A stretch of 64,000 nucleotides of DNA from Candidatus Omnitrophota bacterium (GTDB lineage Bacteria > Omnitrophota > Gorgyraeia > Gygaellales > Profunditerraquicolaceae). The stretch lies in NCBI GenBank assembly GCA_050012075.1, contig JBEKHW010000003.1, positions 14,690 to 78,689 on the forward strand, read 5' to 3'. The notes under the pieces were generated by a model. That model saw only the letters and a list, made by a program, of their open reading frames with translations, searched no databases and was not told where the DNA came from. Every line of letters starts with the position of its first letter. Position 1 is the first letter of the stretch. Made by a program: the position numbers and the translations under genes. Below, piece after piece: positions 24,755 to 62,118 of the stretch.

Positions 24755-25205
24755 CTTTGATTGAGAGGCAAAATTTTTGCTGGTTACTGTTTTGGAAACA
24801 TATTATAGCATTATCCGCGCTTGAGTCAGGATAAAAATAAACTCCCTGTGTTTCTTCGGGCGTAATTGAAGAAATGCTGATGCCGCGGGGGGTTTCGTAT
24901 ACGCCTGAAAATCTTCCCTTTATTTTTTCTAACGTGCTCTCTTGCGTTACGTAATATGCCTGGAATTGCGCTTTCTCCTCATCGCGGTTTAACCCAAGGT
25001 AGAAAATTTTCTCTTGTGAGATGGCGCTTGACTGCAGGTAGCGTGATAAGTAATAGATTTCTTTAGTGAAATTCTCCAGCTCAAGGCTTGAGAATGTATT
25101 GCGGAATCTTGGAATTGATACCGTAGAGAGGACCCCTATAATAACTATTACGATAAGCAGTTCTATAAAGGTAATTCCGCGCCGCCATTTAATTGCAGAT
25201 GTCAT
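24726..25205 (-). CDS. Minor pseudopilin GspH-like
   Basis: GITFIELLIVIVIIGVL prepilin motif. Confidence 0.55.
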   Translation of the reverse strand: MTSAIKWRRGITFIELLIVIVIIGVLSTVSIPRFRNTFSSLELENFTKEIYYLSRYLQSSAISQEKIFYLGLNRDEEKAQFQAYYVTQESTLEKIKGRFSGVYETPRGISISSITPEETQGVYFYPDSSADNAIICFQNSNQQKFCLSIKGATIAIKKE

Positions 25206-25602
25206 CTTCGGCTTTGGTTTCGTCAGGTCCCTTGGAGCAAAGTTTATAATCCTTATCAGCGCTGCTGATCAGCTCATATTCATAATCCCTTCCCCAGGGG
25301 TCTTTGGGTTCTTTTTTCAGGTAAGGGCCTTTCCATCCGGCTACTCCGGGGTTTGTCCTTAACTCCTGTAAACTGTTAGGGAAATGCCCTGTATCCATTT
25401 CAAACATATCCAGGCCCAGGGCGATACTACCCTGTATATCAGATTTTGCCGCGGTAACACGCGCCTGCTCCGAGCGGCCGACAAGCCGCGGCATAACCAT
25501 TGCCGCAAGTATGCCTATGATGATTACGACGAGCATAAGTTCAATCAAGGTAAATCCGTTCGCGTTGTGGGTTGTGGGTTGTGGGTTGTGCGTTTTATTC
25601 AT
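25189..25602 (-). CDS. gspG: Type II secretion major pseudopilin GspG
   Basis: G|FTLIELMLVVIIIGILAAMVMPRL followed by the GspG-specific SDIQGSIALGLDMFEMDTGHFP. The leader (MNKTHNPQPTTHNANG) is unusually long. Confidence 0.8.
   Translation of the reverse strand: MNKTHNPQPTTHNANGFTLIELMLVVIIIGILAAMVMPRLVGRSEQARVTAAKSDIQGSIALGLDMFEMDTGHFPNSLQELRTNPGVAGWKGPYLKKEPKDPWGRDYEYELISSADKDYKLCSKGPDETKAEDDICN
25564..25591 (-). repeat. Heptanucleotide tandem repeat (GTTGTGG on plus, CCACAAC on minus), about 4 copies inside the gspG leader-peptide codons
   Basis: gttgtgg gttgtgg gttgtgg gttgtgc read directly from the sequence. It encodes HNPQPTTHNA. Confidence 0.8.
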
Positions 25603-25966
25603 TAGGGCCTCCTTCTACTGCTTGGATAAATTTATTAAGCTTTCTGCCTAGTTTATCATACTCTTCTAAGAAATACGCGTATTGTTCTTTATCCTGCATA
25701 GATTTCGTTCCAAATAATAACTGTAAATGTTCAATAGTTTCATTACATGAAGAATGTGCGAATATTAAGAATCTTGCATATTCTTGAGGATACTTCTTGC
25801 GCCCAAAACCCTCTACGATATTAGCTGAGATTGCCTTGGCTGATCTGCGTATCTGTGAACCTTCTTCATACATTTCTAATTGAGGCAACTTTAATGTCAT
25901 GCTATGTATCTCAACAGCTAGCTTGTGCGCAAGTTGGTATATTTCTAAATCGCTATAATTCTGCAT
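25595..25966 (-). CDS. Four-helix-bundle protein (TIGR02436 / 23S rRNA-intervening-sequence protein family)
   Basis: About 123 aa (MQNYSDLEIYQLAHKLAVEIH...SAKAISANIVEGFGR...ETIEHLQ). It sits between gspF and gspG. The ATG at 25966 is preferred over the track start. Confidence 0.7.
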   Translation of the reverse strand: MQNYSDLEIYQLAHKLAVEIHSMTLKLPQLEMYEEGSQIRRSAKAISANIVEGFGRKKYPQEYARFLIFAHSSCNETIEHLQLLFGTKSMQDKEQYAYFLEEYDKLGRKLNKFIQAVEGGPNE

Positions 25967-26017
25967 ATATATTTTTTCTACGCCTAACGCATGACGCATA
26001 ACGCCTAACGCACAACG

Positions 26018-27226
26018 CTATTTTACGATTAAGTTGATTTGGAAAATGGGCAGTAACATCGACAGGACAATAAACCCGACGACAATCCCCATTACCAGGA
26101 TTATCACCGGCTCAAGCAGCCGTGTCAGCGCCTTAATAGTCCTTTGGGTATCCTTTTCGTATTCATTGGCAATGCGTAAAAGCGATTTATCCAGAGAGCC
26201 GGTTTCTTCTCCGATCGCGGTTATATTAGTCACAAATTCCGGGAAAAGCCCGGAGTCCCTAAAACAGGTATACAGAGTTGCTCCGTCGGCAATCTTACTT
26301 TTGATTTTTTTCATTTCCTCTTTTAAAACCTGGTTATCCAATACCGTAGCTGATATATCAAGCGCGGAGGTAATCGGGATTCCGCTGCCAAGCAATAAAG
26401 AAAGCGTGCGGCTCAAGCGTCCTATTTCGGTCTTTAAAATAATCGGGCCAAAGAGCGTCATTTTCAGCTTGAACCTGTCTACGGATAACCTTCCCTGCGG
26501 GCTGCGGTATAGCCGCTGGTATACGAAAATCAATAGTGAAACCATGATGATGATAAGCCACCAGTAACCGCGTATAAAAGCCGAAGTAGAAATCAGGAGT
26601 TGCGTGGGTAAAGGCAGGGCTTGTCCCATATCTTCAAACATACTTACGAGGCGTGGTATGACGAATACCAGTAACACTATTACGGTAGCGATACCTACGC
26701 AAAGGACAAAAAGCGGGTAAGTTAAACTCGCACGCAGGGAATTCCTGAATTCGTCCTGCTCCTCCAGGAAATCGGAAAGCTCCTTAAGGGCGCTGTTTAA
26801 TTTACCGCTGGACTCTCCCGTGTGCAGTATAGAAGTATATAAATCAGAGAAAGTATTTCTATGAGTGGATAAACTTTCTGAAAGCGAGCTGCCGTTCCTG
26901 ATTTTGTCAATGACGTCTTTGAGTAATTCTTTTAAATACCTGTTATCGGTTTGTTTGGTGAGGATATTAAGGGCGTTGACTATGTTTATCCCTGAATCTA
27001 TCAGACTTGAAAGCTGCCGGGTAAAAAGCACAAGGTCCTTGCTTGAAACTTTTTTGAAGCCAAATGTTTTTTTGGATGCCAGGGCAAGGGTTGTGGGAGT
27101 TACCGAGACAGGAAAAAGCTGCATCCCGGACAATTTATGAATGGCGTCCTGTTCTGATTCTGCTTCTATCTCTCCTTGGATAATTTTATTCGGCGCGGAT
27201 TTTGCGGTATAGGTATATGTGGGCAT
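26018..27226 (-). CDS. gspF: Type II secretion / T4P inner-membrane platform protein GspF/PilC
   Basis: 402 aa with two T2SSF repeats and three TM helices. Confidence 0.85.
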   Translation of the reverse strand: MPTYTYTAKSAPNKIIQGEIEAESEQDAIHKLSGMQLFPVSVTPTTLALASKKTFGFKKVSSKDLVLFTRQLSSLIDSGINIVNALNILTKQTDNRYLKELLKDVIDKIRNGSSLSESLSTHRNTFSDLYTSILHTGESSGKLNSALKELSDFLEEQDEFRNSLRASLTYPLFVLCVGIATVIVLLVFVIPRLVSMFEDMGQALPLPTQLLISTSAFIRGYWWLIIIMVSLLIFVYQRLYRSPQGRLSVDRFKLKMTLFGPIILKTEIGRLSRTLSLLLGSGIPITSALDISATVLDNQVLKEEMKKIKSKIADGATLYTCFRDSGLFPEFVTNITAIGEETGSLDKSLLRIANEYEKDTQRTIKALTRLLEPVIILVMGIVVGFIVLSMLLPIFQINLIVK

Positions 27227-27228
27227 GC

Positions 27229-28947
27229 TTATTCAGGAAGTTCTTCCTGTTGCGTGACGCGGATTACCTCGGTAAGCGTAGTCAGCCCCTTGGCGACCTT
27301 CTGCAGGCCGTCGTGGCGCAATGTGCGCATACCTTGGGATATGGCTTTCTGTTTTATCTGCTGGCTGGAGGCATGGGTTAAAATCAATTCGCGGATCGGC
27401 TCGGTAATGGTAATGATTTCATAAATGCCTGTCCTGCCGCGATAGCCCGTAAACCTGCATTCCTCGCAACCTTTGCCTTCATAAAATTCTATTTTGTGCG
27501 CGTCAAAAGACAACTCTTTGATCTGCGCCAGTATTTCTTCGCTGGGTTTTACAGGGGTTTTGCAATGCTGGCAGATAAGCCGCACCAGCCGCTGGGCAAT
27601 AAGGCATTCTAAAGATGAGGATACAAGGAACGGCTCAATCCCCATATCCAGTAACCTGGTTACTGCTCCTGCCGCGTCATTGGTATGTAGTGTCGAGAAA
27701 ACCAGGTGGCCGGTAAGAGCAGACCTTATGGCAATCTCGGCGGTTTCGTAATCCCTTACCTCTCCTACCATCATTATGTCAGGGTCATGCCTTAACATGT
27801 GGCGCAGCGCCACCGCAAAAGTGAATCCGATTTGCGGATTTACCTGAATTTGGTTAACGCCCCGCAACTGATATTCAATAGGGTCTTCTATGGTGATGAT
27901 TTTTACTGCCGCGGAATTTAGCTGCGCCAGGGACGCATACAGCGTCGTGGATTTTCCTGAGCCAGTCGGCCCGGTGACAAAGATTATTCCGTGCGGTTTC
28001 TTGATTACTTCTCTTATTATCTTAAGGTCCTCGGGAAACAGGCCCAATTTTTCAAGCTCGAGGAAGAAACGTGAACCAAGGATTCTGATATGCACTGCCT
28101 CTCCGAAAGCAGTAGGAAGTGTAGAGACACGTAAATCAACCTCTTCGTCATTGACCCTTATTTTTATCCTTCCATCCTGCGGCATCCTGCGTTCAGCTAT
28201 ATTAAGCTTAGCCATGATTTTTACGCGCGAGACGATTGCCGGGTGGAAATATTTTATGGTCTCTGGTATGTTTATATCATAAAGCACGCCGTCAATCCTG
28301 AACCTGCTGCGTAATTCATTCTGAAATGGCTCAAGGTGAATGTCGGTTGCCCTGTCTTTGATTGCCTCTGATAGCACCTGGTTTACAAACTTGATAATCG
28401 AGGCGTCTTCCGCAAGGGCCTCCAGGTTTAAGTTCTCGGCGGTGTCCGTTGACATCTTTAACTCTTCTGTAGGCGGCTTCTGCGCAATCATCTTCTCCAG
28501 GGTCTCGGCACCTACGCCGTAATATTTACGTATTGCCTCGAGGATTTCTATTTCACTTGCCAGGACACCCTTTATCTCAAACCCTAAGAGCAGGCGGATA
28601 TCATCAAGGGTCCGTATATCCAGGGGGTTTGTCATGACAATAGTCAGGACATTATCCTCAAATTTTAAAGGTATTATTTTATAGTGGCTGGCGAATTTCG
28701 CGGGAACCTTCTGGATAACCAGCGGCTCAATATCCTTATCCGCAAGCTTTACGTAAGGGATATTTAAGTGGCGGGAAAGCAGGTTAAATATCTTTTCTTC
28801 CGAGGCAAATCCGAGCTTGACTAAGGTGGTACAGATGAATTCCCCTGTTTTACGCTGCTCTATGAGCCCTACTTCAAGCTGCTCCGGGGTAATTACCCCC
28901 TCTTCTACCAGGAATTCTCCTATAAGTATATCGTCTCTTTCCGGCAT
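27229..28947 (-). CDS. gspE: Type II secretion ATPase GspE
   Basis: 572 aa with a T2SSE N-terminal domain, Walker A GPTGSGKST, Asp box, Walker B, His box, and a tetracysteine CQHC...CEEC. Confidence 0.85.
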   Translation of the reverse strand: MPERDDILIGEFLVEEGVITPEQLEVGLIEQRKTGEFICTTLVKLGFASEEKIFNLLSRHLNIPYVKLADKDIEPLVIQKVPAKFASHYKIIPLKFEDNVLTIVMTNPLDIRTLDDIRLLLGFEIKGVLASEIEILEAIRKYYGVGAETLEKMIAQKPPTEELKMSTDTAENLNLEALAEDASIIKFVNQVLSEAIKDRATDIHLEPFQNELRSRFRIDGVLYDINIPETIKYFHPAIVSRVKIMAKLNIAERRMPQDGRIKIRVNDEEVDLRVSTLPTAFGEAVHIRILGSRFFLELEKLGLFPEDLKIIREVIKKPHGIIFVTGPTGSGKSTTLYASLAQLNSAAVKIITIEDPIEYQLRGVNQIQVNPQIGFTFAVALRHMLRHDPDIMMVGEVRDYETAEIAIRSALTGHLVFSTLHTNDAAGAVTRLLDMGIEPFLVSSSLECLIAQRLVRLICQHCKTPVKPSEEILAQIKELSFDAHKIEFYEGKGCEECRFTGYRGRTGIYEIITITEPIRELILTHASSQQIKQKAISQGMRTLRHDGLQKVAKGLTTLTEVIRVTQQEELPE

Positions 28948-57933: not shown

Positions 57934-58016
57934 CTTATTTAGTTCATGGTTCATAGCGGATAGTTCATAGTAAGATATTTTACCATGAACCATTAACTAT
58001 GAACAATGAACTAACT
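57934..58016 (-). repeat. About 83 bp palindromic GTTCAT/ATGAAC-rich intergenic element (copy A), in the pilT leader
   Basis: Sequence cttatttagttcatggttcatagcggatagttcatagtaagatattttaccatgaaccattaactatgaacaatgaactaactac. It contains the inverted repeats ATGGTTCAT/ATGAACCAT and is roughly 75 percent identical to the element at 62046-62118. Confidence 0.7.
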
Positions 58017-59286
58017 ACATAAATTCTCTTGGGTCGCTTATGTATCCCTTTAATGCGGAAGCTACTACCGTAGCCGGTGACGCCAGATAAATAAAAGCAT
58101 TGGGATTACCCATCCGGCCTTTGAAATTCCTGTTAGCTGTAGAAATAACAGTTTCTCCATCGGCAGGCACACCGTTATGCGTGCCTACGCACGGCCCGCA
58201 GCCGGGTGCCACAATCACAGCCCCTGCCCTGACAAATATATCGATGTAGCCTGCTTTTATGGTATCAAGATAAATCTGCCGGGAGCTGGGGGCAACGATC
58301 ATTTTTATTCCGGCGTAAACCTTCCTGCCTTTTAAAATTTGCGCGGCAACTTTAAAGTCATCCAGGCGCGCATTGGTGCATGTCCCCAGAAATGCCTCGT
58401 TTATCTTTATATCCCCTAGATCCCTTACCTCTTTCACATTATCCACGCTATGAGGGCAGGAGACCTGCGGGGCCAGTTTCGATATGTCGAATTTAATTGT
58501 TTTCTCATATTCCGCATCCTTATCGGCAATAACCGGTTTTAGATCCCTTGATTTAAGCATCCTCATCTTTAGCCACTTAAGAGTTTTCTTATCCGCAGGA
58601 ATAAAACCACACTTAGCACCCATCTCAACCAGCATATTGCAGATCGTGAAGCGTCCGTCCATATCCAGCTTATCAATCACTGGCCCGTAGAATTCCATAG
58701 ATTTGTAAGTAGCGCCGTCAGCTTTCAATGTATATATTATATGCAAAATTATGTCTTTTGCATAGATTCCTTTTGGTATATTGCCCTCTACTATTATCTT
58801 TATGGTTTGCGGAACCTTAAACCAGTTTTTTCCTGTCGCCAGGGCAATCGCAAGGTCGGTCGAACCGACACCTGTTGAGAGGGCACCAAGCGCCCCGTAA
58901 GTGCAGGTATGAGAGTCCGCGCCCAACACTAGATCGCCAGGAAGGATCTGTCCTGATTCCGGTATGACCTGGTGGCATACGCCGCAGCCGATATCAAATA
59001 AATCAAACCCATATTTATTGCTGGAATCGCGCATTTTCTTATGGACAGCTGAAACGCCTTCACTTGGGGAAGGCGCGCTATGGTCTATTACCATGCAAAA
59101 TCTGGTCTTTAATTCTTTCAGGCCAAGTTCATTTATGCGGTCAATGATTATGGCGGAAGTGCCATCCTGGCCAAAAGCAAAATCGACCCTGCATATTGCG
59201 AAATCGCCGGCTTTTAAATCCCTGCCGGCATGTCCGCTTAAAATTTTTTCCGCTATCGTTTTCTGGTTCATAACGTGTTCAGCCAC
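58015..59286 (-). CDS. leuC: 3-isopropylmalate dehydratase large subunit (type 2, aconitase family)
   Basis: 423 aa with Fe-S ligand Cys motifs (CNARLDDF... GTCTN, PGCGPCVG) and the aconitase fold. Confidence 0.85.
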   Translation of the reverse strand: MAEHVMNQKTIAEKILSGHAGRDLKAGDFAICRVDFAFGQDGTSAIIIDRINELGLKELKTRFCMVIDHSAPSPSEGVSAVHKKMRDSSNKYGFDLFDIGCGVCHQVIPESGQILPGDLVLGADSHTCTYGALGALSTGVGSTDLAIALATGKNWFKVPQTIKIIVEGNIPKGIYAKDIILHIIYTLKADGATYKSMEFYGPVIDKLDMDGRFTICNMLVEMGAKCGFIPADKKTLKWLKMRMLKSRDLKPVIADKDAEYEKTIKFDISKLAPQVSCPHSVDNVKEVRDLGDIKINEAFLGTCTNARLDDFKVAAQILKGRKVYAGIKMIVAPSSRQIYLDTIKAGYIDIFVRAGAVIVAPGCGPCVGTHNGVPADGETVISTANRNFKGRMGNPNAFIYLASPATVVASALKGYISDPREFM

Positions 59287-62045: not shown

Positions 62046-62118
62046 TTATTTAGTCCATAGTTCATTGTTCATGGTCAGATATTTACTATGAACTATCCAC
62101 TATGAACCAAGAACTATA
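62046..62118 (-). repeat. Palindromic GTTCAT/ATGAAC-rich intergenic element (copy B), between rpsD and rpoA
   Basis: Sequence ttatttagtccatagttcattgttcatggtcagatatttactatgaactatccactatgaaccaagaactatatt. It is homologous to copy A and shares the TTATTTAGT and ACTATGAAC motifs. Confidence 0.7.

Follow-up and report, generated by a model that had tools for sequence, protein, structure and literature searches.

A heptanucleotide tract in the gspG leader of a Candidatus Omnitrophota bacterium as the probable translated arm of an S23p/IVP cassette

Intervening sequences (IVSs) are known from the 23S rRNA of Coxiella and Leptospira (Afseth 1995, Ralph & McClelland 1993, as cited in PMC4990558) and have been proposed to be present or former mobile elements (PMC4990558). 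In the IVS of Coxiella burnetii, the termini form a 28-bp stem, which RNase III cleaves, around an S23p open reading frame (ORF) (Warrier et al. 2016, PMC4990558), and just upstream of the ORF lie 2-3 tandem heptamers (GACAGAT), the number of which is strain-dependent, with 5' cleavage at the first repeat (PMC4990558). The S23p homolog of Xanthomonas is a homopentameric toroid (cited in PMC4990558). Here we describe an S23p gene (also called ‘23S rRNA intervening-sequence protein’, IVP) that lies between gspF and gspG, two genes of a type II secretion cluster, and is flanked by two heptamer arrays facing each other, in a stretch of 64,000 nt from a Candidatus Omnitrophota bacterium (assembly GCA_050012075.1, contig JBEKHW010000003.1, positions 14,690 to 78,689; “the window” in the following, to which all coordinates refer). 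A first, sequence-only reading of the window had taken the heptanucleotide tract at the 5' end of gspG to be a possible slipped-strand phase-variation switch.

The IVP gene (25595..25966, minus strand) encodes a four-helix-bundle protein of 123 aa that starts with MQNYSDLEIYQ and matches the profiles PF05635 (2.1e-26) and TIGR02436 (96.2 bits, cut-off 24); its nearest solved relative is XCC0516 of Xanthomonas (PDB 2gsc, with 5 chains; 5.9e-7). The ORF as called is longer (134 aa, likewise in the form deposited at NCBI, P0121) and reaches 25999, its ATG lying inside the 5' heptamer array; the start is probably at 25966 and not at 25999, because the homologs begin with MQ(S/N)Y. The 5' array (25980..26018, minus strand; sense CGTTGTG CGTTAGG CGTTATG CGTCATG CGTTAGG CGT) begins right after the gspF stop codon and was scored by Tandem Repeats Finder with a period of 7, 5.6 copies and 81% matches. 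The 3' array (25564..25594, minus strand; sense ACGCACA, three times ACCCACA, ACGCGAA) corresponds to codons 4-15 of the gspG leader and was scored with a period of 7, 4.4 copies, 95% matches and a score of 55; its unit is CCACAAC (x4.4) on the minus strand, i.e., GTTGTGG on the plus strand, and it includes four perfect units with 27 nt of perfect periodicity. The gspG tract has units of the type ACGCNNN, of which those of the 5' array are the reverse complement, and an inverted-repeat search returned the arms 25562-25594 and 25986-26018 (33 nt, 76% complementary, 391 nt apart). A lag-7 scan of the 64 kb found these two arrays only (0 in 20 shuffles), and the tract at 25564-25594 is the sole perfect repeat of the window with at least three copies and a period of 5-12. 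The exceptional feature is thus that the only two heptamer arrays of the 64 kb face each other across the IVP gene. The cassette measures ~457 nt in all; it begins immediately behind the gspF stop codon and ends immediately ahead of the Gly-1 codon of gspG.

The cassette resembles the IVSs of Coxiella and Leptospira in its ORF of the PF05635 family and in its complementary termini, which are able to form a stem-loop, and the Coxiella IVS also in the tandem heptamers that adjoin the ORF and can differ in copy number between strains; both the Coxiella-type IVS and the present cassette are regarded as selfish and possibly once-mobile. Unlike the rRNA IVSs, it is situated in an mRNA operon (gspF-gspG) and not in a 23S rRNA helix (the 64-kb window has no rRNA match in Rfam), its arms consist wholly of heptamer arrays, and its 3' arm lies in the translated sequence of the next gene. 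No Rfam families were found for the arms or for the whole cassette, and no description of the array-ORF-array architecture, either in general or in mRNA operons, was found in the searchable literature, in which older work is incompletely covered.

The gene that follows, gspG (25189..25602, minus strand), was identified as the major pseudopilin gene by profile searches (Pfam T2SSG 3.9e-20 and N_methyl 5.9e-8; 105.8 bits against the TIGR01710 equivalog model, cut-off 88.85). Its ORF translates as MNKTHNPQPTTHNANG|FTLIELMLVV..., its prepilin leader being 16 residues long and the cleavage motif G|FTLIE occupying residues 16-21 (5' end, sense: ATG AAT AAA ACG CAC AAC CCA CAA CCC ACA ACC CAC AAC GCG AAC GGA TTT ACC TTG ATT GAA). 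The gspG ATG (25602-25600) overlaps the IVP stop codon (25597-25595) in the sequence ATGAATAA (25595..25602, minus strand), and a GGAGG Shine-Dalgarno sequence (25608..25612, minus strand; GAAGGAGGCCCTAATG) is located 5 nt upstream of this ATG, within the 3' end of the IVP ORF; there is no further in-frame start ahead of G|F. The sequence-only reading had placed a repeat with a 7-nt unit in the leader-coding part of gspG, and both statements are borne out by the profile matches, Tandem Repeats Finder and the translation. It was also right that a change of one unit abolishes GspG: with simulated changes of -2, -1, +1 and +2 units, gspG stops at codons 16, 17, 23 and 24, respectively, and the frame is kept with +3 units. 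The 16-residue leader is long and not unique, since in the 81 of the best 120 GspG homologs in which the G-F cleavage motif was located its position is most commonly 5 and extends up to 31.

We consider it probable (at about 0.7) that the CCACAAC tract belongs to an IVS-type S23p/IVP cassette inserted between gspF and gspG, of which it is the 3' arm in translated form, and that gspG owes its ribosome-binding site, its start codon and an extension of its leader to this cassette. The cassette is composed of the 5' heptamer array, the 123-aa S23p/IVP gene and the 3' heptamer array in opposite orientation, and its arms could pair, enclosing the IVP ORF in a long-range stem-loop. Its 3' end provides the ribosome-binding site of gspG, an ATG overlapping the IVP stop codon and 12 extra leader codons, and translation of the two genes may be coupled through this overlap. 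Prepilin peptidases remove the prepilin leader up to G|F, and the insertion would be tolerated because everything before this site is taken off. The run of identical ACCCACA units would represent a recent local homogenisation (by slippage or conversion) within the 3' arm, and the number of units would drift over evolutionary time, with in-frame states alone surviving.

The same site in relatives identifies the cassette as an insertion. The closest relative of the GspG protein (P0001, 89% identity, 126 aa, on L004) has neither the IVP gene nor the arrays; its gspF and gspG are separated by a spacer of 8 nt (TAG GAGGATAT ATG AAT AGA AAA GGT TTC), its leader reads MNRKG, and leaders of about 5 residues are found in most of the best 120 GspG homologs. 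At least 7 of the best 120 homologs have long leaders with a 7-residue periodicity (e.g., MFKTHNAQRTTHNAKG, MNKTHSAQRTARSAKG, MIKTHNAIRNTRDA and MDKLTHYAGRRAQDAGHMTQDAGRITHDAEG), which is the expected product of a translated heptamer array, and two further ones have an IVP-like N-terminus (e.g., MRVVRFEDLEAWKSTHKG).

Several states of the cassette, from intact to decayed, were encountered at this site. It is intact, with the ATGnnTAA overlap, in the window, L005, L233 and L092, the last of which has 11 units and a leader of 31 residues. In L093 both arrays and the junction ATGAATAAAACGCACA are retained and the IVP gene is internally deleted, its last ~20 codons being left, and in L090 the first 13 IVP codons are fused in frame with the last array unit and gspG (MRVVRFEDLEAWKSTHKG). 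L006-L009 retain nothing but the 3' array, within the leader. Junctions homologous to ATGAATAA are present in L005 (ATGTTTAA), L093 (ATGAATAA) and L233 (ATGATTAA), all three of which also have the Shine-Dalgarno sequence inside the 3' end of IVP, and gspG leaders encoded by an array are found together with IVP genes or remnants of these. A cassette of the same type was also seen in front of another gene (L234:1640-2260), where an IVP gene 80% identical to that of the window, with the same kind of junction (ATGATTAGAACGCACAG), precedes a 516-aa GspK-like gene with the leader MIRTHSTQRIAHNAKG; more than one pseudopilin-type start site is therefore occupied by the cassette.

To see how general this arrangement is, 79 IVP loci were analysed (77 of 80 loci from GTDB genomes, the window and L005). 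The IVP relatives (55-83% identity) come from Omnitrophota, Planctomycetota, Verrucomicrobiota, WOR-3, Bacteroidota, Chloroflexota and several archaeal metagenome-assembled genomes (MAGs). The lag-7 self-identity (best 35 nt) averaged 0.77 upstream and 0.75 downstream of IVP versus 0.40 in 237 control windows drawn from the same loci, and lags of 3-6 and 8-12 at the 79 loci were at control level. Median copy numbers are 4.4 for the 5' and 3.9 for the 3' arrays, within a range from about 1.5 to 16, and some arrays are both long and perfect (9-16 units); the median distance from the end of the 5' array to the IVP start codon is 24 nt, and that from the end of the protein match to the start of the 3' array is 17.5 nt. 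The unit sequence varies by locus (more than 30 consensus units among 46 loci, e.g., GGGTCGT, GATACTC, CAGGTTA, GATGTGA and GATGCAT), and when the 5' unit is compared with the reverse-complemented 3' unit of its own locus, two or fewer of the 7 positions disagree at 43 of 46 loci, versus 35% when the arms of different loci are combined; correspondingly, the arm complementarity score is 20.2 for native and 11.8 for non-native pairs.

Neighbouring genes are co-oriented with IVP at 68 of 70 loci upstream and at 66 of 68 downstream, the median distances being 70 and 60 nt, so the cassettes reside inside operons. At 11-17 of the 60 loci with a clear 3' array, this array can be read without a stop in the frame of the gene downstream, whose first start codon precedes the array or falls within it. 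Genes that have been given an array-encoded N-terminus in this way include a response regulator (MRPKTQDPGPKTNKKILIIDDEP), a DnaQ-like exonuclease (MTQDARPTTHDALIAFDFETTG) and GuaA (MPHRPEPKAQSPELIIILDFGSQY), and in several Planctomycetota the IVP ORF continues through the array to an ATGA overlap with ilvH. N-terminal donation is a recurrent by-product of the cassette and not specific to pilins. The repeat is thus not a property of the pilin gene itself, since such arrays also stand before guaA, ilvH and genes for an exonuclease and response regulators, and the closest gspG relative is free of them. Some loci depart from the general layout: downstream of the IVP stop, L104-L112, L012 and L016 have an additional same-orientation array and, after it, an inverted one, which form a local hairpin, and the arms are direct rather than inverted in L023 and L080.

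These comparisons also bear on the simplest alternative, namely that the tract is an unrelated neutral microsatellite, formed by chance within the gspG leader and without any tie to the IVP gene. Leaders are removed and tolerate insertions (4-31 residues in the homologs), as a chance origin would have it; yet besides the tract the 64 kb contain a single period-7 array, the inverted partner 391 nt away across the IVP gene, the pairing of arrays recurs at dozens of IVP loci, and array-encoded gspG leaders accompany IVP genes or what remains of them. We rejected this explanation, which we regard as very improbable, on account of the inverted partner array and the recurrence at other loci.

Phase variation requires closer consideration. 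Translational switching by non-triplet repeats in leaders is familiar from the CTCTT repeats of the Neisseria opa genes and from other contingency loci of Haemophilus and Neisseria, the characterised examples of which usually have tracts longer than the ~4 units seen here. The gspG tract is similar to opa-type loci in that a non-triplet repeat stands just after the start of an envelope/secretion gene and a single unit shifts the frame, and differs from them in its low unit number, the lack of observed polymorphism, the inserted gene with the inverted partner, and the occurrence of the same repeats before housekeeping genes. Under this explanation, gain or loss of a heptamer would toggle GspG and with it the whole type II secretion system (T2SS) or pseudopilus, the variability being the selected function. 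It draws on the 7-nt unit inside the ORF after the only usable start (±1 or 2 units truncate the protein), on the 27 nt of perfect periodicity, which shows that the variant unit ACCCACA has spread recently within the tract, on orthologous leaders with about 5 or 11 units, on the long and perfect arrays of 9-16 units at certain IVP loci, and on the differing heptamer numbers (2 vs 3) of Coxiella strains (PMC4990558).

Against it stand, apart from the shortness of the tract, the inverted partner across an inserted gene, an architecture that also precedes housekeeping genes, and the complete absence of the repeat in the closest gspG relative. Moreover, no record of another tract length was found. 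A pattern specific to the strain, with a gap of variable size, retrieved no other copy-number alleles from JGI metagenome contigs or GTDB genomes, both of which are without this strain; the 90% protein cluster of GspG comprises only the query and the repeat-less P0001, with no length variant; and a looser pattern (TAAAACGCA...TTYACNYTNATHGA), which gave mostly chance matches, yielded among the matches listed one real allele (L182, 5 units, in frame). The contigs that carry the exact GspG and GspF proteins are all 100% identical to the window (over 3.8-13 kb) and therefore provide no independent evidence that the tract is stable. Arrays of similar size elsewhere did not vary: those flanking the identical IVP protein P0136 are invariant in 10 samples, despite two SNP haplotypes being present, those flanking the IVP protein P0128 are identical in 9 samples, and the leader array of P0107, one of the leaders with the 3' array only, is identical on 6 contigs. 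The orthologous gspG leaders with 5 and 11 units are always in frame, as is every orthologous allele including that of L182, which is expected of called proteins and carries little weight. From these alleles, slippage does take place over evolutionary time; assemblies represent the consensus sequence only, and occasional OFF variants, or switching by slippage as a side effect, are possible. As a selected switch of a surface-structure gene, however, the tract finds no support, being the 3' arm of inverted arrays that bracket the IVP gene, and we judge this explanation unlikely.

Whether the two arms pair was addressed by RNA folding. In a 481-nt sense RNA, both arrays pair in the minimum free energy (MFE) and centroid structures, and the arm-only hairpin of the window reaches -27.5 kcal/mol (z -2.35), which is weaker than in the orthologous cassettes of L005, L093 and L092 (-28.9, -53.0 and -63.0 kcal/mol; z -5.7, -5.0 and -5.6, respectively). 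The ACCCACA units of the window produce C.C mismatches with the GCGT cores of the 5' arm, so the perfect tract is a derived state that weakens the stem. Across IVP loci, the arms are ~84% complementary over a median of 29 nt, i.e., with roughly one mismatch per unit, and sense duplex energies are ~4 kcal/mol better than antisense ones (p = 1.5e-4; the energies are inflated by large loops and were used for the sense/antisense contrast only). By analogy with the Coxiella IVS, an RNA helix between the arms is plausible.

The pattern of mismatches could also be accounted for if the heptamers were protein-binding sites, with the toroidal IVP pentamer, or some other factor, contacting a core of 4-5 nt (ACGC in the window) at intervals of 7 nt on either RNA or DNA; occupancy of the 3' arm would then control translation of gspG or IVP, or mark the ends of the cassette for mobilisation. 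The period is strictly 7 at all loci, with a conserved core and 2-3 variable positions (e.g., ACGC+NNN and GAT(A/G)CT(C/G)), and about one mismatch per unit without a G:U bias is a poor fit to pure selection for an RNA helix. The arms have a median of 4-5 units, and the Xanthomonas protein has 5 chains in 2gsc and is described as a homopentameric toroid (PMC4990558). Closely related IVP proteins accompany related unit types, but such a link is equally expected from common descent of whole cassettes. The number of units varies from about 1.5 to 16, and arrays persist where the IVP gene has been deleted (L093, L006). Furthermore, we know of no nucleic-acid binding by PF05635 proteins outside the diversity-generating retroelements (DGRs). 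We hold such a role of the heptamers to be quite unlikely.

Several observations weigh against the translated-arm cassette itself. The IVP start at 25966 has no clear Shine-Dalgarno sequence. Chance inverted repeats of comparable quality occur elsewhere in the 64 kb, arms of 76% complementarity being unexceptional on their own, and the energy of the whole-cassette fold is no better than that of shuffled sequences (z -0.43). The mismatches between arms across loci show no excess of G:U (80 G:U vs 85 A:C, and many G.A or A.A); these counts do not argue for selection on an RNA helix, and the symmetry of the arms could act at the level of DNA or of protein binding. RNase III processing of the window cassette would follow by analogy with the Coxiella IVS and would be harmful if it occurred: a cut in the stem would sever the gspG start codon from the body of the gene, at a high cost unless the arms are kept from pairing by translation. 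The cassette is accompanied by no transposase and no other mobility function, and the array-encoded leader of GspG is presumably removed by prepilin peptidase, as in the family generally.

A wider interpretation would unite these loci in a single cross-domain family of mobile cassettes, made up of S23p/IVP and inverted heptamer arms, which invades operons and of which the rRNA IVS would be a special case. Insertion would be co-directional, read-out from the cassette's own Shine-Dalgarno sequence and ATG would renew the N-terminus of the downstream gene, and the period-7 arms would be its functional ends (RNase III stems and/or toroid-binding sites). We put this forward tentatively, and think it rather less likely than not to hold in full. 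Because the arms are microsatellites, such cassettes could incidentally make any downstream gene frame-switchable, gspG included. IVP genes with 56-58% identity were seen on archaeal contigs (L046, L050, L052, L054, L055, L062 and L074; MAGs of Methanophagales, Halobacteriota, Methanobacteriota and Nitrosotalea), where they are flanked by a unit family of their own (GATGCAT/GATACAG). From their sequences, the archaeal loci suggest transfer of the cassette across domains, with contamination of the MAGs as an alternative.

Two other known systems invite comparison. Avd, the accessory protein of DGRs, is a PF05635-like four-helix bundle and forms a pentamer (PMC10053308). The IVP of the window shares this homologous fold and, unlike Avd, adjoins no reverse transcriptase (RT) and no template or variable repeats, its neighbours being gspF and gspG; a DGR/Avd reading was ruled out, as no RT domain was found among the ten cluster proteins scanned. 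The REP/BIME elements of enterobacteria are intergenic repeat hairpins in operons, and the STRR elements of cyanobacteria consist of heptanucleotide repeats. The cassette resembles both in having short, hairpin-capable repeats between co-transcribed genes, and STRR also in its 7-nt units; REP elements, in contrast, are not heptamer arrays, and the likeness to REP and STRR is one of form. One part of the FLSHclust CRISPR survey lists ‘23S rRNA IVP’ and ‘GspH’ as new CRISPR-linked proteins (PMC10910872); heptamer arrays beside IVP and pseudopilin genes might have been picked up by CRISPR array finders, which is speculation.

The upstream neighbour of the cassette, gspF (26018..27226, minus strand; Pfam T2SSF 3.9e-65), the stop codon of which abuts the 5' array, is preceded by gspE (27229-28947, minus strand; T2SSE), and the rest of the minus-strand T2SS cluster contains three N_methyl pseudopilins including T2SSJ, a PilX_N-like gene and a PilM/N fusion. 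Elsewhere in the window, heptamer hairpins that contain no gene were found at 57936-58017 and 62051-62115 (units TAGTTCA/TGGTTCA vs TGAACTA/TGAACCA), with a conserved loop of 12-13 nt (TAAATATCT.AC), between the co-oriented genes leuC-like/pilT-like and rpsD/rpoA, respectively; they look like a gene-less form of the array-IVP-array architecture. An inverted repeat at 2300-2378 (38 nt, 79% complementary, 3-nt loop; CAGGGACGGTTCTC...GAACCGTCCCTG) is unrelated in sequence to the heptamer arrays. The only Rfam match above threshold in the window is a cobalamin riboswitch (RF00174, 11453-11665, minus strand; 78.8 bits, gathering score 31.5).

What appeared to be a contingency switch of a pilin gene is re-read here as the footprint of a selfish cassette that holds the translation start of gspG. 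The function and origin of the S23p protein and of the rRNA IVS have been unsolved since the early 1990s (PMC4990558). The module is now seen in protein-coding operons of many bacterial phyla and in archaeal MAGs, with proteins that are 55-83% identical, units that are specific to the locus and arms that match each other; in the searchable literature, the coverage of which is incomplete, we found only the Coxiella heptamers described, and the generality of the arrangement may be new. The element thereby acquires a concrete anatomy, with its ends, its read-through into the next gene and its states of decay. For annotation, odd N-terminal extensions with a 7-residue periodicity (THNAQRT, TQDAGRI, etc.) would be recognised as translated cassette arms.

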